A stretch of DNA of 32,000 nucleotides from Heliobacterium mobile (GCF_009720735.1 NZ_WNKU01000006.1:123809-155808), one strand, 5' to 3'; positions 6,301-31,901 are shown, counted from the first letter of the stretch. The notes: a model not told the origin generated them from the letters alone. Numbers and translations: made by a program.

Positions 6301-6323
6301 ATGTTACTTAGATTTAAAATAGT

Positions 6324-6360: not shown

Positions 6361-6418
6361 GTTGAACCATTTTTATAACAGGACGGTCTAAACGACTATG
6401 TGGGTTTACAGGAACATA

Positions 6419-6691: not shown

Positions 6692-6899
6692 AAGAACCAC
6701 TCCTCCTCTTTAGCTACCTATGTACTACGTGTAATGACAATGACGCTTTTTAAAGCGAAAAGCGACCATCTCGTAGTCATCGACTAACAAAATGGCCGCT
6801 CTGCCATGCTATCCCTCTAATCACAATACCTTGTACTACTTCTCTTTATAAAATGATCATACACTGATTTTATAATCAATGTCAATCAGTTGAGCAATT

Positions 6900-7088: not shown

Positions 7089-7328
7089 CCCTTTCTTTCA
7101 ATGTGCAAAGTATAATCATTTATATGACAAAACATCAAGTCCCAACTTGCTATTCCCTTGTATAACAGCACTACTAACCTTGCACATGCTGGCTGGTTAG
7201 CTTTTGACATCCAATAGTATGCATATAGAGAAATATATCGTAAAAGTATGTCGAAAAAACAGGAAATTTTTGAGTTAGATCGAACATTCGAAATATAGGA
7301 AAAGACTTTGCAAAGGAGGACACCCCCT

Positions 7329-8480
7329 TTGAAAAAAGAGCATTTATATTTCCAGGACAAAGAATGCGGACATCCAAATCATCTCCGTCGCACCAGAGGT
7401 TTAGTGATCACCTACCAGTGCAACCTCGACTGTCTCTATTGTTATGTGTCGAACAAGTCTGATAAACAAATGCCTTTAGACGTAGCCAAACAAGCGATTG
7501 CAGACAGCTTTGTAGACAGATCGGGGAATTCCTTTCAAGAAGTGGAGATTGACTTTTTAGGCGCTGAACCCTTATGTGCTTTTGATAAGATAAAAGAGAT
7601 CGCCCACTGGATGTGGAACCAGCCATGGCCGAAACCCTATATCCTCTTTGCCACAACCAATGGAACCCTGCTCAATGAGGAAATGAAAGACTGGTTTCGT
7701 ACCCACCGAGAACGGTTTGTCCTCGGACTCAGCTACGATGGAGACGAAGAGACCCAAAACGTAAACCGCTCTGATTCATCCACACAAATCGATCTCGACT
7801 TTTTCCAAAAAAACTGGCCCCAACAACCGATTAAAATGACCATTTCCGAAAAAACCGTCCATCGGCTTGCCGATGGAATTATTTTTCTGCAAGAAAAAGG
7901 TTTTAATATTCACGCCAACCCAGCGAACGGCACAAATCCCTGGAGTGAGGCAAGTATCGCTGAATATAGCCGGCAGTTGGCCAAACTCATCGATTACTAC
8001 CTAGACCATCCCGAAGTACCTCCTGTTTCCTTGTTGGATGTGGACTTGAAAACACTCTTGACTTCCCGATCGAGTTTTGAGAACAAGTACTGCGGTGCCG
8101 GGGTCGCTTTTGACGTCGTCGATGTGGACGGCAAAGAATACCCCTGCCATCTCTTTTCACCGTTAGTCTTGTCGAAATCGAAAATCTATGCCTTGCGGTC
8201 ACTCAACTTCCATGCCAAAGAACCCTTCATCGATCCAAAATGCAAGAACTGTGTCTTAGAAAACATTTGCCCCACCTGTTATGGCATGAATTATCGTTCC
8301 ACATCCAATCCGGCACTGCGAGAAGTGACCTTATGCAAATTATATATGTTGCAAATCCTCGCCAATTGTAAGTTACAAGCAAAAATGTTGGCAAGAAAAC
8401 AAAGCTTGTCCGCGGAGGATAAAGAGATCGCTTACGTGATTCAAACCATCTATCAGTTACTGAACAAAAAAACAATGTAA
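7329..8480 (+). CDS. radical SAM / SPASM-domain peptide-modifying enzyme
   Basis: The CNLDCLYC cluster (CxxxCxxC, about 7419-7442) lies within ~30 residues of the start. The C-terminal region fits the SPASM pattern: CGAGVAFDVVDVDGKEYPC (C-x12-G-x4-C), then CKNCVLENICPTC, then a later Cys. AAAGGAGGA (7312-7320) precedes in-frame TTG 7329; the track start is TTG 7308. Confidence 0.85.
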   Translation: MKKEHLYFQDKECGHPNHLRRTRGLVITYQCNLDCLYCYVSNKSDKQMPLDVAKQAIADSFVDRSGNSFQEVEIDFLGAEPLCAFDKIKEIAHWMWNQPWPKPYILFATTNGTLLNEEMKDWFRTHRERFVLGLSYDGDEETQNVNRSDSSTQIDLDFFQKNWPQQPIKMTISEKTVHRLADGIIFLQEKGFNIHANPANGTNPWSEASIAEYSRQLAKLIDYYLDHPEVPPVSLLDVDLKTLLTSRSSFENKYCGAGVAFDVVDVDGKEYPCHLFSPLVLSKSKIYALRSLNFHAKEPFIDPKCKNCVLENICPTCYGMNYRSTSNPALREVTLCKLYMLQILANCKLQAKMLARKQSLSAEDKEIAYVIQTIYQLLNKKTM

Positions 8481-10544: not shown

Positions 10545-10568
10545 TGTGCAGATGGGCGGTGAACGATA

Positions 10569-13154: not shown

Positions 13155-13783
13155 AAAGTGGACGCGAGAAAAAGCCCTCCCTTCTTTCATCATGGTGGGA
13201 TAAGGTGACAACTAAAAAAACCTTCGTTGACGAAACGGTGATGGAAGAATCGGAAGACGCTCCATCGGAAGAACTTGATACCCCGGTTTGCCAAGCTAGC
13301 GAAGCCGAAGATACAAATCCGCTCATGTCCGCCCAAGAAGAATTCCAAGCACGTCTGAGCGATTTTCGCGACTGTTACGAACAGTTATATCGGGGGGTAC
13401 AAGGAGAAGAGGAACTCCTTCGCAATGCGATCGTCGAATGGTCCTATCGGATCGATAAAGAAAAATCTGGTCCCCTATCTCGATACTGGAATCAACTGGT
13501 TCAATCAGAAGGACTCGGCAGCGAACCGAACAAGTGGAATCAGTCCCCTCTGTTTATGCTGCAAAGGCTCGGCGAAACATGGTTAGCCCTCATACAAGAA
13601 TGGGGCGTCCGAAGAGATTCGATCGAAAATCCTGCTCCCTTTTCGATCGACTTGCTCGATAAGTACAGCTTTTTGGGAACGGCTGAACCCAACCAGCCCG
13701 TGTATGTACTCCGTTACGCCTGGTTATTTGGGGACAGGATTATTGAAAAAGGGGAACTGTCAAGAAAAAATCAATCCTTTTGA
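13151..13783 (+). CDS. acidic hypothetical protein, translationally coupled to the NTPase
   Basis: 210 aa. Its ATG overlaps the upstream TGA (ATGA at 13151-13154). It has an acidic, low-complexity N-terminus and no motif I recognise. Confidence 0.65.
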   Translation: MKSGREKKPSLLSSWWDKVTTKKTFVDETVMEESEDAPSEELDTPVCQASEAEDTNPLMSAQEEFQARLSDFRDCYEQLYRGVQGEEELLRNAIVEWSYRIDKEKSGPLSRYWNQLVQSEGLGSEPNKWNQSPLFMLQRLGETWLALIQEWGVRRDSIENPAPFSIDLLDKYSFLGTAEPNQPVYVLRYAWLFGDRIIEKGELSRKNQSF

Positions 13784-18264: not shown

Positions 18265-18300
18265 AAAAAAGAGCCGCCAGGTTTTACACCTGACGGCTAC
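18265..18300 (-). terminator. intrinsic terminator of the SLOG-TM/RyR operon
   Basis: On the minus strand, agccgtcagg-tgtaaaa-cctggcggct forms a 10-bp stem (one G-U pair) followed by tttttt, 8 nt after the RyR gene stop. Confidence 0.85.
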
Positions 18301-18308: not shown

Positions 18309-18599
18309 TCATTCGTCAACTTTTACAATCCGATATCCAAGCGCTACAATCGCCTTCAACGTCTGCATCGCCGCATTTCGATCATAGTCTTTTTCCGACT
18401 CTGGTAATTCTTCGTATGCAATTAGACAGGGATGAAGTTTCTTTTGGTCGTCACGCTGTTCACCGTATTGCCAGCCATCCTTGAACCGCTGTGTGGCCCA
18501 AACATCATGGGCATGTTTTGACAGCAACTCGGTTAATTTCAGGATTTCATTCGTCAGTTGTACTTTCGACGTGTCCATCGGCTTTGGAATATAAGTCAT
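18309..18599 (-). CDS. stand-alone RyR (ryanodine-receptor repeat) domain protein
   Basis: 96 aa with AAGGAG as RBS. HDVWATQRFKDGWQYGEQRDDQKKLHPCLIAYEELPESEKDYDRNAAMQTLKAIVALGYRI matches the bacterial RyR-domain consensus as I recall it. Confidence 0.8.
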   Translation of the reverse strand: MTYIPKPMDTSKVQLTNEILKLTELLSKHAHDVWATQRFKDGWQYGEQRDDQKKLHPCLIAYEELPESEKDYDRNAAMQTLKAIVALGYRIVKVDE

Positions 18600-18689: not shown

Positions 18690-20465
18690 TTACGCCCGGC
18701 GGACTTGTAGAGGCCGAGCCCGGTGCAGGTGAACCCAGTCACCGTTTTCAGCCAAGGCTTCTTTCCCTAGTTCTAGGACGAGTCCTTGAGCCGCTGAATA
18801 ATCGGAGGCGACTAGACAACGGCTCATTTCTGTGGCGGCCCGCTGAAAGATTTCACTCATTACCTCGTACTGCTTGGACTGATCTGAGAGTGCTGATTTT
18901 TCCGCGTAGCCCTCAAATGTAGCCGCGATGGCCGGAGTAAACCCCATGAATACGATCAGCAAGTGATGTAGATCGACTCCAAAGGCATGTTTGAAGTCTT
19001 CATATAAGTGATGCATATAGGGGTCGAGTGCAACAACGATGACCGATAAAGCGAGGCCGCCTACAAAAAAAATCTCAATCCACCGATCGAACCCTTCCAA
19101 TTTATGACGATCCCGCTTTGACGCTTTTTCAAAGAAATTGCATTGGTTCTGGATCCAATGGGTATTCAGTAATTCAAGTAATTTTCTCTCTTTCGATGTA
19201 GAAAGGGCATCCCTCTCCATCGTCATCTGCTGGTTGCCATCAGCGCACCCGGCAGCAATGTTGGCGAATCGAATGGCATTTCGAAGCCAAAGCAGTTCGT
19301 TTCGCTGTTTTCGAAGGTAGTGGTCAGCCACTTCATTGTCTAAACCTGCCAGATGCCAGAAAAACTGAATCCGCAATCCCTCCGCGAGGGCACGATAATC
19401 CAGATGTTTGTTCTGGTAGTTTTTCGAGTTAGCCCGACGGTAGATAAGATAGGCGATAAAAAGTGTGAGTGGGTATAGTCCCAGCATAAGCCGGGATTCC
19501 AGGAACATATGAGCATACAACTCAAAAAATAAAACGGCGGCTAAACCAAGAGCGAACAACTGTCCAATGGCACTACGGCGAATATCAGCAAAATGGATAG
19601 CCATCATATCGGATAAGGCGTAGTGATCTAACAATGATCGTGCCCTATCGGTTAGGACACTCTCCTCTTTGCCAGGCCAGAGCCATTCGCGACTTTGGCA
19701 GATGGCTTCGCTTTTTTTGGGGATTAGTTCTACGGCATCTGCGTTATACGCCTCGATCTGTTCAAATATCCGTCGTTCCGAATTCGCCGACGCTGCTCCT
19801 TTCTTCCCATCGCCGGGAAAAAGAGTAACCAACTGAAAAGGCTTCCCTTTAGGGGTTGGATTGCTATCCCGAGGCGTAACGATGTGGTACACCATCCCTG
19901 TATCAATAGGATCGAGCAAGTTCCGTGGAGGGGCATATGGCTCACCGATGCCTTGGCACTTGAACCGGACGACATGAGCGGATCCTCCGATGCGTCCGTT
20001 ATCTACACCATCCCAAAGAGCGATCAAGATATGGCTATGGCGAACGATGTAGGCCCCAATACGGGCGTAGCGTAGCGCGTCACTGTTCGGCTCGCCTTCC
20101 CTAACAGATAAAGGAATAGAAACAACTCTGTCCGCTTTTTTGACCAGTTCCAGATACTCGGCCCGTGACGACTCCGTGTCCGTTTCGGTAACATTGGCTT
20201 CCCCCTCTTCTAAAAGGGGGACTATTAATCGGCATCCGCAATCTAAGGCAACTTGAGCGACTAATCGGTCTGCTCCTTCCGCTAGCGGCGAAAGAAGGAC
20301 AACTGGTGTATGGGGATAGCTCGATCGCAGATCATTAAAGATTTTTCGTACCTGCTCTTCCAGTGACAAACGGTCGCCATTTCGCAGGTCCCGATGACCC
20401 GTCACACCAATAACAATAGGGATCAAAGGTTCGTTCCTGTCGTAAGTGCCCGTTGCTTTAATCAC
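18690..20465 (-). CDS. SLOG-like (YpsA/LOG/DprA-type Rossmannoid) domain fused to four TM helices (SLATT-like 2TM pairs)
   Basis: GAAGGAGG lies 7 nt upstream of GTG 20465; the track start at 20519 has no RBS. The N-terminal motifs are IVIGVTGHRDL, LSPLAEGADRLVAQVAL and ILIALWDG..GGSAHVV. There are two TM hairpins: LFALGLAAVLFFELY with LGLYPLTLFIAYLIY, and IFFVGGLALSVIVVAL with LLIVFMGFTPAIAATF. Confidence 0.6.
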   Translation of the reverse strand: MIKATGTYDRNEPLIPIVIGVTGHRDLRNGDRLSLEEQVRKIFNDLRSSYPHTPVVLLSPLAEGADRLVAQVALDCGCRLIVPLLEEGEANVTETDTESSRAEYLELVKKADRVVSIPLSVREGEPNSDALRYARIGAYIVRHSHILIALWDGVDNGRIGGSAHVVRFKCQGIGEPYAPPRNLLDPIDTGMVYHIVTPRDSNPTPKGKPFQLVTLFPGDGKKGAASANSERRIFEQIEAYNADAVELIPKKSEAICQSREWLWPGKEESVLTDRARSLLDHYALSDMMAIHFADIRRSAIGQLFALGLAAVLFFELYAHMFLESRLMLGLYPLTLFIAYLIYRRANSKNYQNKHLDYRALAEGLRIQFFWHLAGLDNEVADHYLRKQRNELLWLRNAIRFANIAAGCADGNQQMTMERDALSTSKERKLLELLNTHWIQNQCNFFEKASKRDRHKLEGFDRWIEIFFVGGLALSVIVVALDPYMHHLYEDFKHAFGVDLHHLLIVFMGFTPAIAATFEGYAEKSALSDQSKQYEVMSEIFQRAATEMSRCLVASDYSAAQGLVLELGKEALAENGDWVHLHRARPLQVRRA

Positions 20466-20583
20466 TGATTGGCCTCCTTCAGTGAAACATAGGGGTAGTA
20501 CAATATTTATGTACACCATTCTTTATTTCTTTGAACATTCCTTCAAAAGCAAGCCTATTTTTAGCATACTTACCTAAATAGAA

Positions 20584-22833
20584 CTAAATCGGCTGAAAGA
20601 GGATACCTAGTCGTCCTTTTACCTCTGAAATCGTTACACTGACTATATCGAAACGGTCTATACCGGCCGAACGCAGACATTGAACATTAACCGATCGTTC
20701 TTCCGGTGTCGCTTGAATAGCCGACAACAGGTCTTCATCATTTGTAACAGCTTTGCCATCATAACCGATGATGATGTCGTTTACCCGGATGCCGCTCTTT
20801 TCCGCGATTCCACCTTCGACGAGCTCTGAAACAAAAATTCCTCCGTCCACACCCAGCGTCTCGATTTGAGCCGTAAAGAGTTCCGATGCTTTGATGTAGG
20901 GCTTAAAGTCATCGGAAACCATTTGCTCGCATCGGGACAGTGCACCTAGAGACTCATAGATACGTCCTTCTCGCCTAAGCAGATAAGCTTTTCGCAGAAT
21001 CCCGTCGAACCGATCGGTAGGGCGAACTATTAAGGCATCAAAATCAATCGGTTCAGAAGGATTTTGATAGGGCATAGAGGTAATTAAGTGTTTCAATCGG
21101 GGCAAGTCGGGATGGTTTATGTTCCTAGAGACAAAAAAGTTTAGTGTCTCCAAGGCAATGCCGCCGAAATACTCGTCTTCGAAGTATTTGGTACCGCCGT
21201 CTGCCGAAAGGGTCAATAACCGTTTTACCTTCCGGTCCTTATGTTTAATAAAGATGTCTTTCGCCAAATCGAATTGGTTTGTAAAGAGGTACGCCACACC
21301 GAGATTTAAAATAGCTACATCTTCCTCTGGATTGGCGTCAAAAGCTAATTGTGCCGCATGAAGAGCCTGCGAGGGGTCTCCATCGAGCAAAAAGAAGGTT
21401 GTCGCCGAAACATACAATTGACCGATGTTTTCGTAGTCACCGATCGCCTTAAAGTTTTCTTCACTCTTGATTAGCGCTTCACGGGCCTCTGAAATATGGT
21501 CAATGGCCATATAGGCTTCACCCAATTGCCGGTACAGAATGCCGTTTAGCTGCCTAACTTGAGCTCGGACAGGAGGGTCCTCTGCATCTGCCAGCCCCCC
21601 CAAGAGATCGATGCTGTTTTGAAAGCATTCGACCGATTTATTCAACTCGTTCAGGTGAAGCCATCGTTCCCCCAAACGTTCGTAATTCGCCACCCGTTCC
21701 AATTTGGCGATTATATCGTCTTCATTACGGTCAATGAGTTGATCTAATGTCTTTATATTGGCATCCAAGATTTCGGTGACGATGGGACTTACTTGAGGAA
21801 AGCGACGTAGCCGATCAGGAATGTCAAAAGTCAACTGGTTAATCCGGTCCAAAGCTAGATTCTTTTGAAATTCTGCCCTTTCCTTCTCACTGTCAGCGAT
21901 AGACTTCTGCAAAAGTGCTTCTACTTTTTGCTCGTCCGCCAGGATGCGGGAGGCCTGCTCTTTTTCTCGAGCTTCTTCAGCGGTCAACCTAGCCTCCTTT
22001 TCCTTCCCTTCTGCATCTTCAGCATGCTTACGCATAAGCATTTCCTGAAGCTTGGCCCGTTCACTCTCCGAAAGTGCTTGTTCCGCCATCATACGGGCTT
22101 CCCGCTCATTTTCTCGGGCCTTTTCCGCCTCAATCCGAAGATTGTCCGTGTATTGCCACTGCCGATAACTGTACAATCCGAAAAGCAATAAAAGGGCCAT
22201 AACGGAAGCCGCAGTAATTTCCCACTGCCGGATTTGCCGCTCTCGGTGCCGCTGTTTCAAGTCGTCAAAGGTGCAACCAATAATGGGCGCTATCAGGCGA
22301 AGCTTTTCTGTCTTCAGCAGGGCCATTGATTTTCGAAAACTTGTAGCCCTAATATCGGCGGCCAGCGGTTCAATTTCTACGGAAGTACGGTTGACAGCAC
22401 CATTATCGTCGATAAAGGTCCGTTCGATGTTACAAAGTTGCTTAGGAAAGGATTCTGCAGGTTCTCCCTCAATAAGCAAGGCAAGAATTTGTTTTTCCCG
22501 GCCCAATTCCATAAAGATTTGAATCTCCCTGGCGATCCAATCTGATTGGGGCGTTCGCGGGGAGCAGATAACGATCAAAAACCTGGATTGATGCAAGGCC
22601 TCCCGGATGCTGTCACTGAGGTTGTTCGTTGTGGGGAGTTCATCACGGTCTCGGAAAACCCGCTCAAGCCGTCTCGGCACCCCCTTTTCTACTAGTATTC
22701 GGGGAACTTTATACGTTTCAAGAGCGGTATGCAGCTGTTCGGCGATTCTCTTATCTGGCTGGGTGTGCCGATAACTTATGAACGCGTCATAGCGAAAATC
22801 GATGATTTCTCGCAATCCCTTCCCCTCCCCCAT
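20584..22833 (-). CDS. TIR - single TM - coiled coil - TPR-like - PDZ protein
   Basis: The TIR signature is YDAFISYRH...FLIVICSPRTPQSDWIAREIQIF...LLIEGEP. A basic KQRHRERQIRQW stretch precedes the TM ITAASVMALLLLFGLYSY. An E/K/R-rich coiled coil and helical repeats follow. The C-terminal region is PDZ-like (GIFVSELVEGGIAEKSGIRVNDIIIGYDGKAV). The start is uncertain: ATG 22833 has a weak RBS. Confidence 0.85.
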   Translation of the reverse strand: MGEGKGLREIIDFRYDAFISYRHTQPDKRIAEQLHTALETYKVPRILVEKGVPRRLERVFRDRDELPTTNNLSDSIREALHQSRFLIVICSPRTPQSDWIAREIQIFMELGREKQILALLIEGEPAESFPKQLCNIERTFIDDNGAVNRTSVEIEPLAADIRATSFRKSMALLKTEKLRLIAPIIGCTFDDLKQRHRERQIRQWEITAASVMALLLLFGLYSYRQWQYTDNLRIEAEKARENEREARMMAEQALSESERAKLQEMLMRKHAEDAEGKEKEARLTAEEAREKEQASRILADEQKVEALLQKSIADSEKERAEFQKNLALDRINQLTFDIPDRLRRFPQVSPIVTEILDANIKTLDQLIDRNEDDIIAKLERVANYERLGERWLHLNELNKSVECFQNSIDLLGGLADAEDPPVRAQVRQLNGILYRQLGEAYMAIDHISEAREALIKSEENFKAIGDYENIGQLYVSATTFFLLDGDPSQALHAAQLAFDANPEEDVAILNLGVAYLFTNQFDLAKDIFIKHKDRKVKRLLTLSADGGTKYFEDEYFGGIALETLNFFVSRNINHPDLPRLKHLITSMPYQNPSEPIDFDALIVRPTDRFDGILRKAYLLRREGRIYESLGALSRCEQMVSDDFKPYIKASELFTAQIETLGVDGGIFVSELVEGGIAEKSGIRVNDIIIGYDGKAVTNDEDLLSAIQATPEERSVNVQCLRSAGIDRFDIVSVTISEVKGRLGILFQPI

Positions 22834-22974
22834 AAGCCCGTTAACGAATAATCAATAACCTCTTCTTTATACATATGTAACTTTATATTTATACCTATAG
22901 GAGGATATTTTTTACTTCCAGCGAATAATTCCTGCAAGATCAAGCTGGAATTTATGAAATTGGAGGGAGCGCCT

Positions 22975-23922
22975 GTGAAACAAAAACAGTTGGTTGGACT
23001 ACGTTCGACTGAGTACGAACACCCCTTTGATCGGAACGCGCTGGAAGCACTAAGAGGAACACCTGGGTTGGAAACGATCGTAAAAAAGTTCAACCATTAT
23101 GGTATCGAAAAACTTTTGAAAATCCGCTATACCGGCAGCAATATTAAGGTAGATGATCGTAACTATCCCGAACTCTATGATACGTTACGGCAAGTCTGCG
23201 CCATTATCGATCTGCCCGAAATACCCGATCTGTACATCCAGTGGGGGTACGAGATCAACGCCTTTACAGCCGGTGTGGAAAAACCGATCATCGTGCTGAA
23301 TTCAAGCTGTATTGATTTTTTGTCCAAAGAAGAGTTGATGTTCATCATCGGCCACGAGGCCGGCCACATCAAGAGCCAGCATGTCCTATACCATCAAATC
23401 GCTGAGGTCTTACCAATTATGGGCGACATCATAGGCAATGCCACTCTTGGCATTGGAAGCCTAATTTCTACCGGTGCCGAGATCGCCTTGTTGAACTGGC
23501 AGCGTATGTCCGAATTTACCGCCGACCGGGCCGGCCTGCTAGCTTGCCAGGATGCCAACATAGCTACCAAAGCCATGGTCAAGCTGGCCGGTGTACCGCA
23601 AAAATATTTCAACTCTATCAATGTTGAGGAATTCATTGCTCAGGCGAAAGAGTTTGAAGGCTATGACTATGATACGCTAGACAAGATCGTCAAGCTGATG
23701 AGCACGATGTGGATGAGCCACCCCTGGACGGTCATGCGCGGCGCCGAGTTTTTCAAGTGGATCGATACGGGCGAGTATGACCGTTTACTCAGTGCTAATC
23801 GGCTAGAAAACCTTATCGGAAACAGTAATGCGAGTGGTACCGGTAAAATGGCCTGCCCGAACTGCGGCGCAACCCTGAAAGGTGTTGAAAAGTTCTGTCC
23901 CTATTGTGGGAATAAGATATAA
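22975..23922 (+). CDS. M48-family zinc metallopeptidase with C-terminal zinc ribbon
   Basis: It has HEAGH (HExxH) and a downstream EFTADR third ligand. The C-terminus is CPNCGATLKGVEKFCPYCGNKI. GGAGGGAG lies 5 nt upstream of in-frame GTG 22975; the track ATG is at 22954. Confidence 0.8.
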   Translation: MKQKQLVGLRSTEYEHPFDRNALEALRGTPGLETIVKKFNHYGIEKLLKIRYTGSNIKVDDRNYPELYDTLRQVCAIIDLPEIPDLYIQWGYEINAFTAGVEKPIIVLNSSCIDFLSKEELMFIIGHEAGHIKSQHVLYHQIAEVLPIMGDIIGNATLGIGSLISTGAEIALLNWQRMSEFTADRAGLLACQDANIATKAMVKLAGVPQKYFNSINVEEFIAQAKEFEGYDYDTLDKIVKLMSTMWMSHPWTVMRGAEFFKWIDTGEYDRLLSANRLENLIGNSNASGTGKMACPNCGATLKGVEKFCPYCGNKI

Positions 23923-23926: not shown

Positions 23927-23961
23927 AAGCCGGTTGCTTTGTTACTGAAAGCATCCGGCTT
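23927..23961. terminator. terminator hairpin between convergent genes
   Basis: aagccggttgcttt / aaagcatccggctt forms a stem flanked by aaaaat upstream and ttcttc downstream. Confidence 0.55.
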
Positions 23962-24042: not shown

Positions 24043-24501
24043 TTATTCAAACCGAGTCCCACAGTTTGGGCAAAACTTCCCCTCTCTACGTTCTTCACCA
24101 CAGTTTTGACAGAAACGGGTTGCCTTTTGGCCTATACCCTTTTGCAAAGCAGAGAATAGATCCTCCACTGCTTTATGGCAAAAACCTCCTCCCATAGCTT
24201 GAAAGGAAAGTAGCAGTCGAATCGACAAATTCACCTCGGAACAATTTCCCTGCGGCATCACCTTGGCATCCAACCTGTACGACGTAGTGGAATCGCTCAG
24301 TGCATTGAACATCTTTAAGGCGTTTTTGTATATTGCATAGGCCTCAATCGTACCGTTCGCTGGGTTCTTCTTCTCTATCTGCCACCACATATTCATGCCC
24401 ACCAGTTGGAGTGGTGTCGTTTCGATCGTTTGGATCAATTGTTCAAAGGCTTGTTGTGGTGATTCGGGAAATTGGCGTTTCTCTTCGTAATGAGCGGACA
24501 T
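24043..24501 (-). CDS. hypothetical protein with C-terminal zinc ribbon
   Basis: AGGGAGGA lies 7 nt upstream of ATG 24501; the track start at 24627 has no RBS. 152 aa, ending CQNCGEERREGKFCPNCGTRFE. Confidence 0.7.
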   Translation of the reverse strand: MSAHYEEKRQFPESPQQAFEQLIQTIETTPLQLVGMNMWWQIEKKNPANGTIEAYAIYKNALKMFNALSDSTTSYRLDAKVMPQGNCSEVNLSIRLLLSFQAMGGGFCHKAVEDLFSALQKGIGQKATRFCQNCGEERREGKFCPNCGTRFE

Positions 24502-24712
24502 ATTAAATTCCTCCCTATTTGCTGCTATATTTTTATAGTATTTAGAACGCAGCGTACTTCTCAAGACAATCAATAGCAGAGCCAACGTCTTCCGCATAAT
24601 CAACAGCTCTATCATTGACGCGCACAATTATATATCTTTCGTCAAGTCTAGCCTCTACGGTTGATTAATTGCCTCTTGAGTTTTCCCTTCGAATCGAAAT
24701 GTTCTAGTTAGT

Positions 24713-25837
24713 TCAATGAGTTGCATTAAAATCTGATGTATTTTCATCAAAAGAAATTTGAGAAGATTTTATTTTCCAAAGTGTATTGGCATTCTCATTG
24801 ATTATTTTATCTATAATCGGTTTTGCTTCCGGTATATGCCCTAATCTAGCGGGTATTTCTTGCATTAGCCGGTCGCTTGCTTCTAAAGCCATTTCTTTCT
24901 GTTGCTCAGCCACCACTCTCTCCTTTTCTGCCAACAATGCTCCCTCACATGCTCGTTTTGCTTGTATATTGGCCATACTCCTCTGTTCTTCCGCCATTAG
25001 AGCCTGCTGCACAGTCACTTGACGCTGTCTCTCTACTTCCATTGTAGCAGCTTGAGCTTCATTTTCTCGAATTATTGCCTGATCTCTAGCTTTCTCTGCC
25101 TTTTCTTTTTTCTCTACTGCTTCTAACGTCGCATTCTCTGCTTCTAACCTTTTGCCTTCGGCGTAGCGGTACTGCATAATGCTTGCCGTTCCAAAAATAA
25201 ACAAGCACAAGATTGAACCTAGAGCAAGCATTGTAACGTTTTTTACGAATCTTTCTCTGTGTCTCTGCCGAAGATTATCAAAGGTACAGTTTAATAACTT
25301 AGCGAGAAGACGCAATTTCTCTTCTTTTAACATTTGCAATGATTCAGAAATGCTATTCGATTCGTTCGTAATGTTAGCAGCTAATGGCTCAGCAATTTCT
25401 AATCGTTCGTATTCCTGACCACCGATCCGCACCCAATGCCGACGATGCTCCCGAAGAAGATCAGGGAAGGATTCTTCTGGTTTTCCTTCCACAAGCAACG
25501 TCAGAATCCGGTTTGAACGACCCATTTCTCGAAATAATCGAATTTCCTCCTTCACTCGTCGATCCTTGGGGGTTGCTGGCGAGCAAACAACGATAAGAAA
25601 GTTCGCACACTTCAGTGCTTGAGAGATATCCAATGGAGCTATTTCTTTACTTTCATATCCCAAATATGCAGGCATATATACTTTCACTTTTTCCGATAAG
25701 CCTTGCTTCACCAAGGCATTGGGTACCCGGTACGAATTTAATGCGTTTACTAGATGATTTGCTATGGAAAGGTCCAGCCTTCGCTGACAACAGGTGATAA
25801 CCGCATCGTATCGAAGGTCCTTTTCTTCGGAGGTCAT
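24713..25837 (-). CDS. degenerate TIR-like domain - TM - coiled-coil protein
   Basis: AAAGGAGGAG serves as RBS. It is a paralogue of the two other TIR proteins (FLIVVCSPATP, ILTLLVEGKPEESFP, EKLRLLAKLLNCTFDNLRQRHRER). The N-terminal signature reads YDAVITCCQ instead of YDAFISYRH. The TM is VTMLALGSILCLFIFGTASIM. Confidence 0.75.
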   Translation of the reverse strand: MTSEEKDLRYDAVITCCQRRLDLSIANHLVNALNSYRVPNALVKQGLSEKVKVYMPAYLGYESKEIAPLDISQALKCANFLIVVCSPATPKDRRVKEEIRLFREMGRSNRILTLLVEGKPEESFPDLLREHRRHWVRIGGQEYERLEIAEPLAANITNESNSISESLQMLKEEKLRLLAKLLNCTFDNLRQRHRERFVKNVTMLALGSILCLFIFGTASIMQYRYAEGKRLEAENATLEAVEKKEKAEKARDQAIIRENEAQAATMEVERQRQVTVQQALMAEEQRSMANIQAKRACEGALLAEKERVVAEQQKEMALEASDRLMQEIPARLGHIPEAKPIIDKIINENANTLWKIKSSQISFDENTSDFNATH

Positions 25838-25858
25838 GATTCACTCCTCCTTTAAAAC

Positions 25859-26515
25859 CTATTGCTTGTTGAGATTATAGGTTTCTTGTAGTTTTCTCCA
25901 TTTTAGAAAAGCCTTGTTTGCACTTTCTAAGTCCCCTAGTTCACGGGATATTTCTTCCGTTTTTTTCCATACAATATGTAGAAATCGTTGTGCTTCGATA
26001 TTTGTGGTGTCCTTTGCCAGTTCTTCGGCAATAACTAGTTCTTTTTCGTACCATTTGCGTGCATCTAAAAACTCACCTTCAGCGTAAGTAAAATCGCCAT
26101 AACTTTCGTAGAGAATGGCTAGGTCCCTTAGCGCCTTTGCATTCGTTTGGTCCTTTGCCAGTTCTTCACGTATCGCAAGAGCCTTCTCATACCACCCTCG
26201 GGCTAGCGACAGGTCCCCTTGGGCTACCGACACTTTCCCTAGGTTATTGTAACTGATTGATAAGTCCCGTTGCGCCTCTGCATTCATTTGGTCTTTTGCC
26301 AGTTCTACCGAAATCGCAAGAGCCTTCTCATACCACCCTCGGGCTCCCGATAGGTCCTCTCTGGCTACCGCCACTTCTCCTAGTCTTTCGTAACTGATCA
26401 ATAAGTCCCTCTGTGCCTGCGTATTTGTCTGGTCTTTTGCCAGTTCTTCAGCAATCTCAAGAGCCTTCTCATACCATATCCGGGCTCCCCACAGGTCCCC
26501 TTGGGCTATCGCCAC
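25859..26515 (-). CDS. TPR-like 47-aa-repeat protein; in-frame continuation of the 26531-28516 ORF
   Basis: 218-aa ORF with a GTG start and no clear RBS. It begins in the middle of a repeat unit (AIAQGDLWGARIWYEKAL...) and carries about 4 more repeat units. Confidence 0.6.
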   Translation of the reverse strand: MAIAQGDLWGARIWYEKALEIAEELAKDQTNTQAQRDLLISYERLGEVAVAREDLSGARGWYEKALAISVELAKDQMNAEAQRDLSISYNNLGKVSVAQGDLSLARGWYEKALAIREELAKDQTNAKALRDLAILYESYGDFTYAEGEFLDARKWYEKELVIAEELAKDTTNIEAQRFLHIVWKKTEEISRELGDLESANKAFLKWRKLQETYNLNKQ

Positions 26516-27400
26516 AACACCTATTCTTTCTTAACTGATCGATAAGTCCCGCTGTGCCTGTGTATTTGTCCGGTCTTTCGCCAGTTCTTCAGCAATCGTA
26601 AGAGCCTTCTCATACCATATCCGGGCTCCCGAAAGGTCCCCTTGGGCTATCGCCACTTCTCCTAGTCTTTCGTAACAGAGCGATAAGTACCGCTGCGCCT
26701 CTGCATTCATCCGGTCTTTCGCCAGTTCTTCAGCAATCGTAAGAGCCTTCTCATACCATATCCGGGCTCCCGACAAGTCACCTTGGGCTACCGCCACTTC
26801 TCCTATGTTATTGTAACTGATTGATAAGCCCCGTTGCGCCTCTGCATTCGTTTGGTCTTTTGCCAGTTCTTCACGTATCGCAAGAGCCTTCTCATACCAT
26901 ATCCGGGCTCCCGACAGGTCCCCTTGGGCTACCGACACTTCCCCTAGTCTATCGTAACTGAACGATAAATCCCGCTGCGCCTGCGCATTCGTAAGGTCTT
27001 TTGACAGTTCTTCAGTTATCGCAAGAGCCTTCTCATACCATATCCGGGCTCCCGACAGGTCCCCTTGGGCTACCGACACTTCCCCTAGTCTATCGTAACT
27101 GATCGATAAGTTCCGCTGCGCCTGCTCATTCGTCCGATCTTTCGCCAGTTCTTCAGCAATCGCAAGAGCCTTCTCAAACCATATCCGGGCTCCCGGTAGG
27201 TCCCCTTGGGTTATCGCCACGTCCCCTAGTCTTTCGTAACTGACCGATAAATCCCGCTGCGCCTGCGCATTCGTCCGATCTTTTCCCAGTTCCTCATTTA
27301 TCACAAGACCCTTCTCAAATTCTGCTTTAGCCCTTACTACATCACCCAATATAATCCACGTGTCTCCCATACGCGAAAAGTTTACACTCTTTTCACGCAA
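25900..27400 (-). repeat. tandem 141-nt (47-codon) coding repeats, about 10 units
   Basis: The 52-nt string ccagttcttcagcaatcgtaagagccttctcataccatatccgggctcccga occurs at 26581 and again at 26722, exactly 141 nt apart. The same period is seen throughout. The boundaries are approximate. Confidence 0.8.
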
Positions 27401-28516
27401 CACTTTCGGGTCCGATAGCTCTCTGCCTACATCCATAATCCTATCCAGCATCCCTAAGTTTCCTGCCAGCACGTCCACCAAAATCGTTTTGGTACCTGCT
27501 ATGTTTTGAAGCTTATCAGGAACATCATAAGTTAAGCTACGGATAACTTGCATAGCAAGGTTTTTCTGCTCTACGCTCTGCTTGCGCCGTTCTTCGGCAA
27601 GGGCATATAGCTTTTCTGAGGTCGCCCGTTGCGACTCAGCATCCTGTTTAGCTTGCTCCGTTTCGTTTTTATATTTTTCCGCCTCTTGTTCCAGTCGACG
27701 CGCTTCTTCATAGCGTGCTTCAGACCAGCGCTGCATTTCTCCGGCTTTCTGATACTGCTCGACAGCAATCTGCTCCGCTTCTTGTGCTTCAGCTAATTTG
27801 ATTGTGGCGACTCGACTTGATTCTTCTGCCTGCCTTCGTAAATCGTTGCTGTAAAAACCATAGATTGTAGCTATGGTTAAGGCTGCCGTTAGGGCTAAGC
27901 CTCTCTGCCAATACAGTCGCTGTTGGTGATAGTGCCAAAGTTCTTCCTTCTGAACACCTGCCAGTAGTGTAATTAGTTCCAACTTCTGTTCTTTCAGGTT
28001 GTTCAAAATTTGGCTCGTATCTTTTCCACGCAGGTCGGTTACAGGTAGTTTCCACTTCCCGTTAATCGACTCTTTTAAATTGCTATCGTCTTCCCGTGCC
28101 GCCGACCCTTCAAGATGATCCAATAGCGCTAATAGAGGAAGCGGGAACGAATCCCTTGGTTCTCCTTCGATAATCACCGGCAAGATACGCTGGGCTCTCC
28201 CTAACTCAATAAAAGTTTCTATCTCCCTGGCCACCCATTCCGACTCGGGGGTGCTTCGGGAGCACAATACAATGAGAAATTGCGATTGAGAAAGAGCGTA
28301 CGCAATGTCATCGCTAAGGTTGCTGGAACTGGGTAGTTCTGCTAGGTCCAAAAATATCCGAGTTATCGGCCATGCTCCCTTTTTGACCAGTGCCGAAGGA
28401 ACTTTGTACGTCTCCAAAAGCCGGTGCAGGCGGGCTGCGATAATCTTATCTGGAAAGCCGTGGCGGTAACTGATAAATGCATTGTAATGATAATCACTTT
28501 TAGGATTAAAAGTCAC
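26531..28516 (-). CDS. TIR - TM - coiled coil - TPR-like 47-aa repeat protein (ends at a TAA inside a repeat)
   Basis: GGGGGGAG lies 5 nt upstream of GTG 28516. The TIR signature is YNAFISYRH...FLIVLCSRSTPESEWVAREIETF...IIEGEP. The TM is LALTAALTIATIYGFY, followed by an E/K/Q-rich coiled coil. About 6 repeats of ...AQRDLSxSYERLGEVAVAQGDLSGARIWYEKALAIAEELAKDxTN follow. Confidence 0.85.
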   Translation of the reverse strand: MTFNPKSDYHYNAFISYRHGFPDKIIAARLHRLLETYKVPSALVKKGAWPITRIFLDLAELPSSSNLSDDIAYALSQSQFLIVLCSRSTPESEWVAREIETFIELGRAQRILPVIIEGEPRDSFPLPLLALLDHLEGSAAREDDSNLKESINGKWKLPVTDLRGKDTSQILNNLKEQKLELITLLAGVQKEELWHYHQQRLYWQRGLALTAALTIATIYGFYSNDLRRQAEESSRVATIKLAEAQEAEQIAVEQYQKAGEMQRWSEARYEEARRLEQEAEKYKNETEQAKQDAESQRATSEKLYALAEERRKQSVEQKNLAMQVIRSLTYDVPDKLQNIAGTKTILVDVLAGNLGMLDRIMDVGRELSDPKVLREKSVNFSRMGDTWIILGDVVRAKAEFEKGLVINEELGKDRTNAQAQRDLSVSYERLGDVAITQGDLPGARIWFEKALAIAEELAKDRTNEQAQRNLSISYDRLGEVSVAQGDLSGARIWYEKALAITEELSKDLTNAQAQRDLSFSYDRLGEVSVAQGDLSGARIWYEKALAIREELAKDQTNAEAQRGLSISYNNIGEVAVAQGDLSGARIWYEKALTIAEELAKDRMNAEAQRYLSLCYERLGEVAIAQGDLSGARIWYEKALTIAEELAKDRTNTQAQRDLSIS

Positions 28517-29308: not shown

Positions 29309-29340
29309 TTTCCAAGGTTGAAGTAAAGGAGGAAGTGGCA

Positions 29341-29853
29341 ATGGGGCTTTATGAGACAACGAAAATCGTCCCTGTCTCGCTCTCGGACCTAACTCCAGTG
29401 GCGAACGACGTTTTAGATTATTTTCGTGCCCAAGAGTATGATGTCAACGGTGAAGGGACTCCAACTCGGGGATGGCATATCAGTATCAGTAAGGGTGGGA
29501 TATTTAAAGCCGTCCTTGGCATGAAGACAGCACTGAATATTGAAATTGAGCCTACCCGTACAGGAACATCCCTTAAGGCGGGCATTGGTATATTCGGGAT
29601 GCAGGCCATTCCCACAGTGATCGCGCTTTTCGTGGCTTGGCCCGTCTTGCTCACTCAGATCTGGGGCCTTGTCAAAAATGCTGATTTGGATGAAGAGGCC
29701 ATTAATTGTGCCGAAAAAAGCCTATTGAGCCAAGCTACACATCATTCTGCCAGTAAAGCACAAGTTGACCCATCTCAAACTTTTTGTACTAATTGTGGTC
29801 ATCGACTTCAATCGGGAGATAAGTTCTGCCCTCAATGTGGTACCCGTCGGTAG
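29341..29853 (+). CDS. membrane protein with C-terminal zinc ribbon, hypothetical
   Basis: AAGGAGGA lies 7 nt upstream of ATG 29341; the track GTG at 29335 is too close to the RBS. It has one TM (IPTVIALFVAWPVLLTQIWGLV) and ends CTNCGHRLQSGDKFCPQCGTRR. Confidence 0.7.
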   Translation: MGLYETTKIVPVSLSDLTPVANDVLDYFRAQEYDVNGEGTPTRGWHISISKGGIFKAVLGMKTALNIEIEPTRTGTSLKAGIGIFGMQAIPTVIALFVAWPVLLTQIWGLVKNADLDEEAINCAEKSLLSQATHHSASKAQVDPSQTFCTNCGHRLQSGDKFCPQCGTRR

Positions 29854-30020: not shown

Positions 30021-31901
30021 TTGCATAGGTTAAAGAACTCGGAGGGAGAAGGACCATTGAAAAAAACTAGCAAACGACAAGGATTATCGTTTTGGGAAAT
30101 GTGGGATGACTATCAATGGTTGTTATTAGGCTTTCTTACAGTCATAGCAATGGTTTTGGGGATTACCGGATTTATTCAAATGGCGGCCCTATCAGAGGCC
30201 TCATTGCATGTTTCGACTATAAGCGATGCTCTTTATCAAACCCTTTTGTTATTTACTTTTGAAGGTGTGGCCACAAATCATGTACCACTTTCTCTTGATA
30301 TTTCCCGTTGGTTGACCGTCTGCGTGGCCGGATTTGCAGTCGTAAAAACATTCCTTACTATCACGCGAAAAGAATATGGTATTTTTCGGTTGCTCTTTTG
30401 CCGTGATCACATCGTTATCTGCGGGCTTGGACGAAAAGGCACATTGCTTATTGAGGATTTACTTTCGTCAACTGAACGTAAAAACCGTCATATCACTGTC
30501 ATCGAGTTGAATAACGATAATGACCAACTAGTGTCCTATCGAAAGAAAGGAATCACTATTATTCAAGGCAGCGCAACAGATCCAATAACCTTGCAAAAAG
30601 CTGGTATCTCTAAGGCCGCTTATCTGTTTATTTTGACAAATAACGATGATACCAATATTGAAATTGCCTTCAAAGCCTTTCAAACCGTTACCTCTTATGC
30701 GGTTAACGAAATCATGCCGAAGGTCAAAGATGGCATAATAAGTTCCCGCGATCTGAGAAAGAGGAAAAGCAATCTAAAATGTTATGCTCATGTCAGTAAT
30801 TCCATCATGTTTGATTTGTTCCGGCAGCACAAGTTATTTAACCACAACCACCGGTCTTTCGAGGGGAAACTTTTCAATTTATATGAAGCAAGTTCCCGTC
30901 AAGTTTTTAACCAATATCCCCCTGATGAACTTTGTGGTGGCCTATGCCATCTTCCCGATAGTGCTCCTATACACATCGTGATTGTGGGCTTTGTGACGAT
31001 AGGCCGGACTCTACTCCTTCACATCCTCCGGCAAGCCCACTACGGAAATTTAAAGAGAACAAGGATTACGATTATCGATAGCGCAGCAGACATCGAATCG
31101 TCACGGTTTCGGGGAGCTTATCCCGGTGTAGAACAAGTGGCAGAAGTACATTTTCTGAGCAAGGATCCACAAAGCTTAAATATGCATGATATTCTCCAAT
31201 TAAACGATATATGTCCGGTCCCCATCCTTTATATTAGCCTTGATGATGATACACTGACTTATCTTACAGCGTACCGACTAGCCGCACAAATTAATCACGT
31301 CGGCGATGCCCCTGTCAATGGCCTACAAATCGTGGCATGCATTCCAGAAATTACGCCTTTATATCCGCTGATGAAAGGAAAAGAACAGCTGACCACCTAT
31401 GACTCTGGACTTCAGCTCCCTGATCAAATGCAGATTTTTCATATGATCAGTGAATCCTGTAACTGGAAAGTGATTGTCCAGGAAGACTTGGACGAGCATG
31501 CCGAAAAACTACATCAAGATTATCTAAATACACGGACAGAGCTGACATCAGAAGAAATTTCTATGTCTTGGGACGAGCTGTCAGAAGAGTACCGTAACTC
31601 AAACCGCTATGCAGCGGATCATTATTCCATCAAACAACGGGCGATTCTCGCTGCTTTCCAAAATCTGCGTGATAAGGAAAAGGGCCTTCAACCACCTTTT
31701 GTGGACGATAATCTGGTAGAACGGCTGGCCCGAATGGAACATCAGCGCTGGACGGCGGAGAAGCTATTATCCGGATGGACCTACGGCCCCAAGCGGGATG
31801 ACGGAAAAAAGAAAAATCCCAATCTTGTCGATTGGGATCGGCTAGATGAGCAAGTTAAACTTTATAACCTAGAAAATGCGAGAAAACTATTTCGTCGATA
31901 A
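30021..31901 (+). CDS. 2TM channel-like domain - TrkA-N/RCK Rossmann domain(s) - C-terminal RyR domain protein
   Basis: Two TM helices (LLLGFLTVIAMVLGITGFI and WLTVCVAGFAVVKTFLTI) flank a pore-helix-like ALYQTLLLFTFEGVATN. IVICGLGRKG (GxGxxG) with ...GSATDP...ILTNNDDTNIE is TrkA-N-like, and IVIVGFVTIGR marks a second Rossmann-like domain. The C-terminus (MEHQRWTAEKLLSGWTYGPKRDDGKKKNPNLVDWDRLDEQVKLYN) is RyR-like. The true start may be TTG 30057 or ATG 30099. Confidence 0.75.
   Translation: MHRLKNSEGEGPLKKTSKRQGLSFWEMWDDYQWLLLGFLTVIAMVLGITGFIQMAALSEASLHVSTISDALYQTLLLFTFEGVATNHVPLSLDISRWLTVCVAGFAVVKTFLTITRKEYGIFRLLFCRDHIVICGLGRKGTLLIEDLLSSTERKNRHITVIELNNDNDQLVSYRKKGITIIQGSATDPITLQKAGISKAAYLFILTNNDDTNIEIAFKAFQTVTSYAVNEIMPKVKDGIISSRDLRKRKSNLKCYAHVSNSIMFDLFRQHKLFNHNHRSFEGKLFNLYEASSRQVFNQYPPDELCGGLCHLPDSAPIHIVIVGFVTIGRTLLLHILRQAHYGNLKRTRITIIDSAADIESSRFRGAYPGVEQVAEVHFLSKDPQSLNMHDILQLNDICPVPILYISLDDDTLTYLTAYRLAAQINHVGDAPVNGLQIVACIPEITPLYPLMKGKEQLTTYDSGLQLPDQMQIFHMISESCNWKVIVQEDLDEHAEKLHQDYLNTRTELTSEEISMSWDELSEEYRNSNRYAADHYSIKQRAILAAFQNLRDKEKGLQPPFVDDNLVERLARMEHQRWTAEKLLSGWTYGPKRDDGKKKNPNLVDWDRLDEQVKLYNLENARKLFRR

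Follow-up and report, generated by a model that had tools for sequence, protein, structure and literature searches.

The TIR-domain genes of Heliobacterium mobile studied here raise the question of whether neighboring membrane receptors feed a common output. We analyzed 32,000 nucleotides (nt) of this genome (NZ_WNKU01000006.1:123809-155808), hereafter called the window, which carry on the minus strand three closely packed genes: gene 1 (28516 to 25859), gene 2 (25837 to 24713), and gene 3 (24501 to 24043). A first-pass annotation, made from the sequence alone, had read them as one operon of a TIR-transmembrane (TM) receptor, a degenerate TIR paralogue, and a zinc ribbon protein, which together with a third TIR paralogue would signal through a protein that it called SLOG-TM. 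Sequence comparisons support the view that genes 1 and 2 are one case of a recurrent pair, in which a long TIR-TM receptor is accompanied by a degenerate partner. We lean, by little more than an even chance, to the reading that they form a heteromeric membrane TIR receptor, with the short subunit regulating assembly, and that they are added sensors of a Thoeris-like system whose messenger would act on a SLOG-SLATT protein and/or a TM-TrkA_N-RyR protein and be cleared by a small RyR protein. The parts of the two TIR genes are as follows; aa, amino acids; ORF, open reading frame.

26531..28516, minus strand: gene 1a, long TIR-TM protein of 661 aa (from ORF, translation, and Pfam)
26531..26533, minus strand: in-frame stop codon TAA (from sequence and repeat register)
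25859..26530, minus strand: gene 1b, 4.5 further TPR-like repeats and a C-terminal tail (in the frame of gene 1a)
26131..27317, no strand assigned: tandem DNA repeat array coding for the TPR-like sensor (from Tandem Repeats Finder)
24713..25837, minus strand: gene 2, short, sensor-less, degenerate TIR-TM partner of 374 aa (from Pfam, AlphaFold2 [AF2] with Foldseek, and alignments)

The minus-strand ORFs start and end at the positions given by the first-pass annotation and are spaced 21 nt and 211 nt apart. The span from 28516 to 25859, which it took for a single gene, is split by an in-frame TAA at 26533..26531. Gene 1 starts with a GTG at 28516 and has a strong Shine-Dalgarno sequence, GGGGGGAG. 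The gene 1a product consists, in order, of an N-terminal TIR domain, a divergent linker, a weak TM segment, a coiled coil, and 5.5 TPR-like repeats of 47 aa. It matches the Pfam families TIR_2 (41.4 bits; cutoff, 28 bits), TPR_10 (95 bits), and TPR_12 (94 bits), and the ThsB_TIR profile scores 33.7 bits against a cutoff of 21.2 bits. The TIR domain had been described as intact looking, with the motif SEWVAREIETF, and it is: in the family alignment SEWVAREIETF and IFLDLAELPSSSNLSD match the consensus sequences S.W(V/C)..EI and FRD..ELP, and every catalytic hallmark is retained, among them the BB-loop motif and, within the alpha-C motif, the catalytic residue Glu98.

The stop codon in gene 1 is a TAC-to-TAA change at a conserved Tyr in repeat 6 of ten 47-aa TPR-like repeats, and repeat 6 has three more nonconsensus substitutions beside it. 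The 223 codons past the stop remain open and the repeats that they encode are on consensus; thus, the stop is either very recent or a consensus error in an array that is hard to assemble (141-nt period, 8.4 copies, and 86% identity by Tandem Repeats Finder). A nonsense mutation that arose very recently, a misassembly of the tandem repeats, or a truncation that the cell tolerates could each explain it. An ORF finder placed gene 1b at 25859..26515, with a GTG start and 218 aa, and its product matches TPR_12 (58 bits). Programmed read-through or recoding at the TAA was considered and rejected; the context is TAA-G, and no recoding signal was noticed.

Gene 2 begins with an ATG at 25837, 21 nt past the stop of gene 1b, and has an AGGAGG Shine-Dalgarno sequence. 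Its product has a TIR fold, the conserved linker, a TM helix, a coiled coil, and a stalk segment, and then stops. It falls below the Pfam cutoffs for both TIR_2 (23.0 bits) and ThsB_TIR (19.6 bits). The first 200 residues nevertheless gave a confident AF2 model (pLDDT, the predicted local distance difference test score, was 87.6), and the top Foldseek matches in the PDB are almost all TIR domains (RUN1, Roq1, SARM1, TLR10, RPS4, ThsB, AbTir, and MyD88), with probabilities of 0.98 to 1.0 and E values of about 1e-3. Because the model is confident and its best structural matches are TIR domains, gene 2 is predicted to retain the flavodoxin-like TIR fold; the model was built from an alignment of TIR relatives, which makes this a not fully independent test of the fold. 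Its catalytic residues are mixed. The catalytic Glu is kept (in RVKEEI), the Trp has become Arg, the beta-A strand FISYRH has become VITCCQ, and the BB-loop motif FRD..ELP has become the shortened YLGYESKEIAPL.

These results agree with the earlier description of gene 2 as a protein that keeps the TIR fold and the linker and lacks a C-terminal sensor: it has TIR-like sequence, a TM helix, and zero C-terminal repeats. Its linker does resemble that of the third TIR protein, as had been claimed, but "almost identical" was an overstatement, the two sharing 17 of 24 residues. The closest relative of gene 2 in a 5.8-billion-protein database is 36% identical, and no orthologue was found above that level. 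Its matches split between canonical TIR-TM proteins and proteins without any Pfam match.

We scanned metagenomes with a 6-sequence alignment as the query and obtained 80 TIR-TM family loci, which were annotated with our own pipeline of ORF finding and hidden Markov models and combined with context look-ups of relatives (loci are cited below by L numbers). All three paralogues in the window align across their entire N-terminal 340 to 370 residues, and the first-pass view of three TIR-TM paralogues with a shared architecture therefore stands. Common to them are the TIR domain, a conserved linker [EPLAA(D/N)I … EKLRL(I/L)A..(L/I).CTFD.L.QRHRER], a single hydrophobic helix, a coiled coil, and a further conserved segment after the coiled coil [L(T/M).(D/E)(I/V)P.(K/R)L … PI]. 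Gene 2 stops immediately past this segment. Two of the paralogues have different repeat sensors, as had also been proposed: gene 1 has ten TPR-like repeats, and the third paralogue, a 749-aa protein, has a TPR-like region plus a PDZ domain. We rejected the possibility that gene 2 is a recent tandem duplicate of gene 1 or of the 749-aa gene; it grouped with them in 0 of 300 bootstraps, and identities are 29 to 38%. Because gene 2 never groups with either, a reading of the genes as three recent paralogues is unsupported.

The family alignment contains two classes of degenerate TIR proteins. In the first, made up of pseudo-TIRs of about 640 to 650 aa, neither the Trp nor the Glu is present and the BB-loop/αB segment is missing in its entirety. 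The second is short and sensor-less, and it includes gene 2, protein P0011, and proteins of 308 aa and 330 aa encoded at L091 and L092. The L091 and L092 short forms are 42 to 43% identical to gene 2, end at the same point, and have Gln instead of the catalytic Glu. In at least 10 of 14 cases a degenerate member lies directly beside a canonical TIR gene (the window, L002, L089, L090, L091, L092, L116, L153, L155, and L156), and at L089, L091, and L092 the neighbor of the long TIR-TM gene is again a short, sensor-less partner that terminates where gene 2 does. The histories of the two kinds of gene also run in parallel. In a distance-based neighbor-joining tree (300 bootstraps), the group L156, L090, and L002 resolves into a clade of canonical partners and a parallel clade of degenerate ones, both present in 100% of bootstraps, and we therefore conclude that these pairs were inherited together. 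Gene 2 clusters with the other degenerate forms weakly (48 to 57%). A separate arrangement was seen at L001 (10001-13118), where TIR-TM (351 aa) and WD40 (675 aa) proteins are encoded, in that order, by two distinct genes, which may be a split TIR/sensor arrangement; the surroundings are ESX/type VII secretion-like, with FtsK/SpoIIIE and WXG100 proteins.

The recurrence of short partners bears on another explanation of the module, that it is decaying, with gene 1 turned into a pseudogene by a nonsense mutation and gene 2 left over in degenerate form from a receptor duplication, its sensor and catalytic motifs gone. The in-frame TAA and the three further nonconsensus substitutions in the same repeat are what one would expect of decay, as are the sub-cutoff Pfam score of gene 2, its loss of FISYRH, the BB-loop motif, and the Trp, and the lack of a relative closer than 36% identity. 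However, the 374 codons of gene 2 form an uninterrupted ORF preceded by a strong Shine-Dalgarno sequence, the TIR fold of its product is confidently modeled, and the shortness of gene 2 is a conserved state, given the partners at L089, L091, and L092. The open, on-consensus codons past the stop mean that any inactivation of gene 1 is very recent or an assembly error, and the 661-aa product as read still holds the TIR domain, the TM segment, the coiled-coil stalk, and 5.5 repeats. We consider decay of the whole module improbable. The window module is nonetheless only one instance, and a damaged one, whose usefulness lies in giving access to the family.

The state of the catalytic motifs bears in turn on the idea that these TIR domains are nonenzymatic adaptors like those of Toll-like receptors (TLRs) and MyD88, with the degenerate TIR as a scaffold subunit and no nucleotide signal at all. 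The best Foldseek TM-scores of gene 2 do include the scaffold TIRs MyD88, TLR10, and TRIF, and degenerate partners are conserved in spite of their lost catalytic residues. Yet in gene 1 and the 749-aa protein W(V/I)AREI still contains the catalytic Glu and the BB-loop motif is of the NADase type, domains that sense or process nucleotides (SLOG, RyR, and TrkA_N) are encoded nearby, and the bacterial TIR systems characterized so far are all enzymatic in the literature that we examined. Purely adaptor TIRs are therefore very improbable here. We favor instead the reading in which the long partner, at least, would be an enzyme.

We infer the orientation of these proteins in the membrane from their flanking charges. 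In a set of 83 family proteins, Lys plus Arg average 5.9 in the 15 residues that precede the TM helix and 2.3 after it; the number is higher before the helix in 80 of the 83, gene 2 and the 749-aa protein included, and the reverse was found in none. By the positive-inside rule, the TIR domain would be cytoplasmic and the coiled coil and repeats (TPR, WD40, PQQ, or PDZ) would be outside. Two properties of gene 1 speak less clearly for this topology: its own charge signal is ambiguous (2 versus 3 Lys plus Arg by hand count), and its TM segment is weak, with a Kyte-Doolittle value of about 1.1. The orientation suggested for gene 1 is that of its homologues in the family.

The genes that might supply the output lie on both sides of the pair.

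20584..22833, minus strand: third paralogue, canonical TIR-TM protein of 749 aa (from Pfam and alignment)
18690..20519, minus strand: SLOG-SLATT protein of 609 aa, candidate effector (from AF2 with Foldseek and family-level Pfam)
18309..18599, minus strand: stand-alone RyR protein of 96 aa, candidate signal hydrolase (Pfam RyR, 119 bits)
18272..18298, minus strand: strong intrinsic terminator (11-bp stem with 7 GC pairs, and a T-run)
30021..31901, plus strand: TM-TrkA_N-RyR protein of 626 aa, candidate sensor/effector (Pfam TrkA_N, 63 bits; RyR, 51 bits)

The 749-aa protein (Pfam TIR_2, 45 bits; PDZ_6, 40 bits) has a coiled coil, its TPR-like region, and a C-terminal PDZ domain. Its gene is 65 nt upstream of the SLOG-SLATT gene, which places a TIR gene directly next to an effector candidate, and the terminator at 18272..18298 closes the row formed by the 749-aa TIR, SLOG-SLATT, and RyR genes. 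The 609-aa protein is a SLOG-SLATT fusion as judged from its model and its family, with an N-terminal YpsA/YspA-like SLOG sensor domain and a C-terminal SLATT membrane domain, and the earlier label SLOG-TM, a SLOG domain plus a membrane domain, was apt. Its AF2 model (pLDDT, 80.5) matched YpsA, ShosA, the MoCo carrier protein, DprA, TM1055, and PpnN in Foldseek. The best match was YpsA (2nx2; E, 6e-5; target-normalized TM-score, 0.62), and the DprA matches were weaker (E, about 6e-3 to 5e-2). The assignment of the SLATT domain comes from the family: the window protein itself has no Pfam match, but it is 40 to 47% identical over its full length to members that match SLATT, and it has more than 2,000 full-length homologues. 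Among 16 members searched with Pfam, matches were to DUF4231 (13), SLATT_1 (6), SLATT_3 (4), and YAcAr, the YspA/cpYpsA SLOG family (5); the L091 homologue passes the SLATT_1 cutoff. A profile made from the SLOG-SLATT alignment found no match among PDB sequences.

TIR genes are concentrated beside this effector family. We examined 80 genomic loci carrying SLOG-SLATT homologues and found a TIR gene within 5 kb in 29 of them. The TIR ORFs number 32 at 0 to 5 kb (565 kb scanned) and 0 at 5 to 10 kb (437 kb scanned). TIR-TM-linker genes abut SLOG-SLATT genes at L066, L047, L135, L144, L148, and L165, and the gene order at L144 and L165 is TIR-TM, TrkA_N-RyR, SLOG-SLATT. The best analogue of the window, and a close one, is L091, a metagenomic locus in which a SLOG-SLATT gene is followed by five TIR genes, with a short TIR-TM gene, a long TIR-TM-TPR gene, and an AAA-RyR gene in divergent orientation. 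The five TIR genes of L091 are consecutive on the minus strand (1-7912); two or more of them carry a fused PQQ beta-propeller and one apparently has two TIR domains, which makes this an extreme multisensor locus.

Several facts weigh against the reading that we favor, and some of them are also what could be expected if the pair were autonomous. Genes 2 and 1 lie 4.2 kb and 6.0 kb, respectively, from the SLOG-SLATT gene, gene 1 being outside the 0- to 5-kb zone that holds all 32 TIR neighbors at the 80 genome loci. A convergent gene pair (gene 3 and an M48 peptidase gene) and a terminator separate genes 1 and 2 from it. Searches with PADLOC gave no Thoeris call for genes 1 and 2: gene 2 and the SLOG-SLATT protein were unmatched, gene 1 matched only PDC-S66 and a TPR model, and the 749-aa protein matched ThsB1 with an E value of 0.002. 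The pairs at L089, L090, and L002 have zero SLOG-SLATT genes, and no RyR gene or other known effector, within 8 to 10 kb; their surroundings are housekeeping genes, and L090 and L002 share the same setting (purA, purB, trmB, and ABC-transporter genes). Most canonical family members are solo genes, as are about 70 of the 80 metagenomic members, and only 6 of the 80 metagenomic TIR-TM loci carry a SLOG-SLATT gene. The single clade of degenerate forms has 48% bootstrap support, and long-branch attraction is possible. Finally, the stop codon in gene 1, its weak TM segment, and its ambiguous flanking charges count against the favored reading as well.

If the pair is unrelated to the SLOG-SLATT protein, it might be an NAD+-depleting abortive-infection device or an envelope or cell-cell signaling receptor with another output, and its position would reflect the ordinary clustering of defense and accessory genes in a variable region; the island does start at a break in synteny with Heliobacterium chlorum that is marked by an IS110 insertion. 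We regard such autonomy, the main rival reading, as rather unlikely. The nearest relatives of gene 2, at L091 and L092, adjoin SLOG-SLATT genes. The pair in the window is flanked by the SLOG-SLATT and TM-TrkA_N-RyR genes, and these two partners directly adjoin each other at seven other loci. Even 6 of 80 is far above chance, the SLOG-SLATT family being present in roughly 600 of 185,579 genomes. The earlier proposal that the TIR paralogues are tied to the SLOG-TM protein thus holds in part: the relatives of gene 2 at L091 and L092 sit in loci with SLOG-SLATT, multiple TIR, and RyR genes, but because the pairs at L089, L090, and L002 lack SLOG-SLATT, dependence of canonical-degenerate pairs on it is not general. 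For the window itself, we judge the link plausible but unproven. An origin of the two families in phages or prophages was also considered and rejected; among 2.9 million viral contigs, the TIR-TM family has zero relatives and SLOG-SLATT has one weak relative.

Whatever the TIR genes signal to, the SLOG-SLATT protein is not the sole candidate output, as the first-pass annotation had supposed. The TM-TrkA_N-RyR protein is a second candidate effector, and hydrolysis of the signal is a likely role for the 96-aa RyR protein. Among the 80 genomic SLOG-SLATT loci, a small or other RyR protein is encoded in 8, and a TM-TrkA_N-RyR gene is directly upstream in 5. TM-TrkA_N-RyR homologues are directly upstream of SLOG-SLATT genes at L015, L045, L049, L051, L080, L144, and L165; in the window the same two partners enclose the gene 1/gene 2 pair. 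The RyR domain has a known enzymatic form, RyDEP, a phage glycosidase of cyclic ADP-ribose (cADPR) with the residues H75, W78, H100, and D117 (PMC13232231). The window 96-aa protein is likewise a single RyR domain (PF02026), and its H31, W34, H56, and D73 have the same spacing (+3, +25, and +42) as the RyDEP residues, in a comparison by spacing and family alignment only. The four residues are kept in all six other small RyR proteins beside SLOG-SLATT genes (L003, L008, L009, L022, L045, and L068), which suggests that these proteins are a host-encoded means of clearing the signal. Unlike RyDEP, the window protein is encoded by the host, in the effector's own gene row, and would serve to adjust or reset signaling, not to escape from it.

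The larger proteins differ in just these residues. TrkA_N-RyR proteins have two C-terminal RyR repeats, mostly without the catalytic dyad, and the window copy lacks it. Because the dyad is kept in the small RyR proteins and mostly lost in the TrkA_N-RyR proteins, the former would be hydrolases and the latter sensors, and the TM-TrkA_N-RyR protein may be a second nucleotide-gated membrane effector. The idea of a common nucleotide output is therefore reasonable, and the island offers two candidate effectors for it as well as a candidate signal-clearing enzyme.

Returning to the reading that we favor, genes 1 and 2 would encode single-pass membrane TIR proteins, each with a cytoplasmic N-terminal TIR domain, a linker, a TM helix, and an extracytoplasmic coiled-coil stalk. 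The TPR-like array of the long partner would be the extracytoplasmic sensor. The short partner would join the long one through the shared linker, TM helix, and stalk and would either restrain or nucleate the assembly of the TIR domains. An outside ligand or a perturbation of the envelope would cause the TIR domains to oligomerize and to convert NAD+ to a cADPR-type signal. The nucleotide made in this way by several TIR receptors would act on the membrane effectors, opening or activating them, and would be removed by the RyR enzyme. The island as a whole is most likely a multisensor Thoeris-like system, and any role in defense would follow from that likeness. A stronger version holds that the receptors are TLR-like, work from the outside in, and are obligate heteromers with their pseudo-TIR partners, and that a cADPR-type messenger opens both the SLOG-SLATT and the TM-TrkA_N-RyR proteins and is cleared by the host RyR glycosidase; we find that version possible but doubtful.

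If membrane-anchored TIR proteins with external repeats are indeed made, bacterial TIR/NAD signaling could be triggered from outside or from the envelope, like that of TLRs. The resemblance to TLRs lies in a solenoid repeat sensor outside, one TM helix, and a cytoplasmic TIR domain. The resemblance to the plant pair RPS4/RRS1 lies in genetic linkage of two proteins, of which one is competent for TIR signaling and the other is not; the pairing of an intact TIR with a degenerate partner points to a pseudoenzyme regulatory subunit, parallel to paired plant TIR nucleotide-binding leucine-rich repeat (LRR) receptors (TIR-NLRs). Unlike the TIR domains of TLRs and TIR-NLRs, those in the window are N-terminal (type II orientation), their sensors are TPR, WD40, PQQ, or PDZ domains and not LRRs, and there is no NB-ARC domain. 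The likeness is one of logic, by analogy, and not demonstrated common descent.

Closer parallels are found among bacterial systems. In Thoeris, one or more ThsB TIR sensors make a signal derived from ADP-ribose (ADPR) that activates an effector (Doron 2018; Ofir 2021; Yirmiya et al. bioRxiv 10.64898/2025.12.03.692087). Thoeris islands can contain up to seven ThsB genes and several effectors; SLOG effectors characterize types I and III, and the SLATT effector ThsH characterizes type VII, which uses the canonical cADPR signal (bioRxiv 10.64898/2025.12.03.692087). The window is like Thoeris in that its TIR genes cluster with signal-binding (SLOG) and membrane-disrupting (SLATT) domains and in that TIR genes are strongly enriched beside its effector family. 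It differs in that its TIR proteins would be single-pass membrane proteins with large predicted extracytoplasmic repeat sensors, in that they occur in canonical-degenerate pairs, in that the PADLOC models miss genes 1 and 2, and in that it is known here from genes alone. To our knowledge, the characterized ThsB proteins are cytoplasmic.

Two Thoeris types come nearest. Type III is reported to have multiple TIR proteins and a SLOG effector, ThsD, of the Smf/DprA type (van den Berg et al. 2024). The window shares with it the coupling of more than one TIR gene to a SLOG-domain effector, but its SLOG domain is closest to the YpsA/YspA type and not Smf/DprA, and it is fused to SLATT. With type VII the window shares a SLATT membrane effector adjoining TIR genes, and a cADPR-type signal is plausible; compared by description, ThsH has a SLATT annotation only, whereas the window effector adds an N-terminal SLOG domain. 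Burroughs, Zhang, Schaffer, Iyer, and Aravind, writing in Nucleic Acids Research (NAR 2015), are said to have predicted nucleotide-centric conflict systems built from SLOG, SLATT, and TIR domains. SLATT was defined as a SLOG-associated effector with two TM helices, and TIR-SLOG systems were predicted to signal via ADPR derivatives, according to two later sources that cite this work (PMC9503650 and PMC7159879). The SLOG-associated SLATT effector and the logic of TIR-SLOG signaling match the window; the long and short TIR-TM receptors and the host RyR partners of SLOG-SLATT are features of the window that we did not find described for these systems in the literature examined.

Thoeris with several TIR genes, SLOG effectors, a SLATT effector, and islands with multiple effectors have thus already been described or predicted. 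In a literature search that was incomplete and that did not include Burroughs et al. 2015, we did not find a description of the TIR-TM-repeat architecture, of the pairing with degenerate partners, or of the regular adjacency of host RyR and SLOG-SLATT genes. As standard neighbors of SLOG-SLATT genes, host RyR proteins suggest built-in clearance of the signal, and their adjacency ties the connection between cADPR and the ryanodine receptor in animals to a prokaryotic gene neighborhood. If the stronger version given above is true, the RyR domain would be an ancestral module for sensing and processing cADPR that is linked to TIR signaling.

The remaining member of the proposed operon, gene 3, converges on the peptidase gene that lies between it and the 749-aa gene.

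24043..24501, minus strand: gene 3, near-orphan protein of 152 aa with a C-terminal zinc ribbon (from sub-threshold Pfam zinc ribbon matches)
22954..23922, plus strand: M48 zinc metallopeptidase with a C-terminal zinc ribbon (Pfam Peptidase_M48, 77 bits; Zn_Ribbon_1, 28 bits)
23929..23961, no strand assigned: hairpin in the interval where gene 3 and the M48 gene converge, resembling a terminator on either strand
29335..29853, plus strand: membrane protein of 172 aa with a C-terminal zinc ribbon like that of gene 3 (Pfam Zn_Ribbon_1, 37.5 bits)

Gene 3 has an ATG at 24501 and a strong GGGAGG Shine-Dalgarno sequence. Among 1.84 billion representative proteins, it has two homologues only beyond the zinc ribbon. 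The sole full-length one, P0165, is encoded 30 nt downstream of an M48 plus zinc ribbon peptidase gene at L171; that peptidase is 56% identical to the window M48, and the contig has no TIR gene. The second gene 3-like protein, P0167, is on a 1.6-kb contig with an unrelated neighbor. Both gene 3 and M48 are absent from about 160 other TIR-TM or SLOG-SLATT loci. Because P0165 is beside M48, because gene 3 is missing from the TIR and SLOG loci, and because a 211-nt gap precedes it, gene 3 is probably a partner of M48 and not a member of the TIR operon to which it had been assigned. That its link to M48 comes from one 2.5-kb contig weakens this conclusion.

The hairpin that the first-pass annotation had assigned jointly to gene 3 and the M48 gene was recovered at 23929-23961. 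It has a minus-strand U-run, UUAUUUUUAU, after the stem-loop and a weaker U-run on the plus strand; since it lies between convergent genes and has U-runs on both strands, it is a plausible bidirectional terminator. Apart from this hairpin and the terminator after the RyR gene, a scan of 18 to 30.2 kb for sigma-70 promoters and terminators gave counts equal to those of shuffled controls. With counts at chance level, the scan neither supports nor refutes a single operon.

The 172-aa protein has a hydrophobic segment at residues 82 to 100 and a ribbon similar to that of gene 3. The same type of ribbon (CxxCG, a spacer of 7 to 8 residues, and KFCPxCG) ends the proteins encoded at 22954..23922, 24043..24501, and 29335..29853, which are otherwise unrelated.

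The TIR/SLOG island spans 18.3 to 31.9 kb of the window. Genes on the flanks of the island share at least 90% protein identity and 88 to 97% DNA identity with H. chlorum. Synteny runs to about window position 18,160, where H. chlorum carries an insertion that contains IS110 and after which its contig stops. When island proteins were checked for H. chlorum members of their 90%-identity clusters, there were none. The island is probably strain variable; its absence from H. chlorum is not proven. At the start of the island (window positions about 18035-18164), H. chlorum has a 5.7-kb insertion (L088, 228-5936) with an IS110 transposase, an S-layer protein, and AAA_22 fragments, and this site appears to be a hot spot for variable DNA.

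Three other groups of genes in the window deserve mention. The segment 13843..15564, which includes a 466-aa DUF7379 gene on the minus strand, is missing from the otherwise syntenic H. chlorum region and is a small strain-specific insertion. A plus-strand row at 8769..13783 encodes a 591-aa protein with a weak match to the actin/Hsp70 fold, an 861-aa HerA/DUF87 ATPase (PADLOC HerA/mad8; E, about 1e-18), and a 210-aa orphan; the row is 96.7% identical in nucleotides in H. chlorum and looks like a HerA-based defense candidate. At 4769..8480, also on the plus strand and syntenic with H. chlorum, a Condensation-domain protein is encoded beside a radical S-adenosylmethionine (SAM) protein, and this pair may be a small cluster for a natural product or for a ribosomally synthesized and posttranslationally modified peptide (RiPP).

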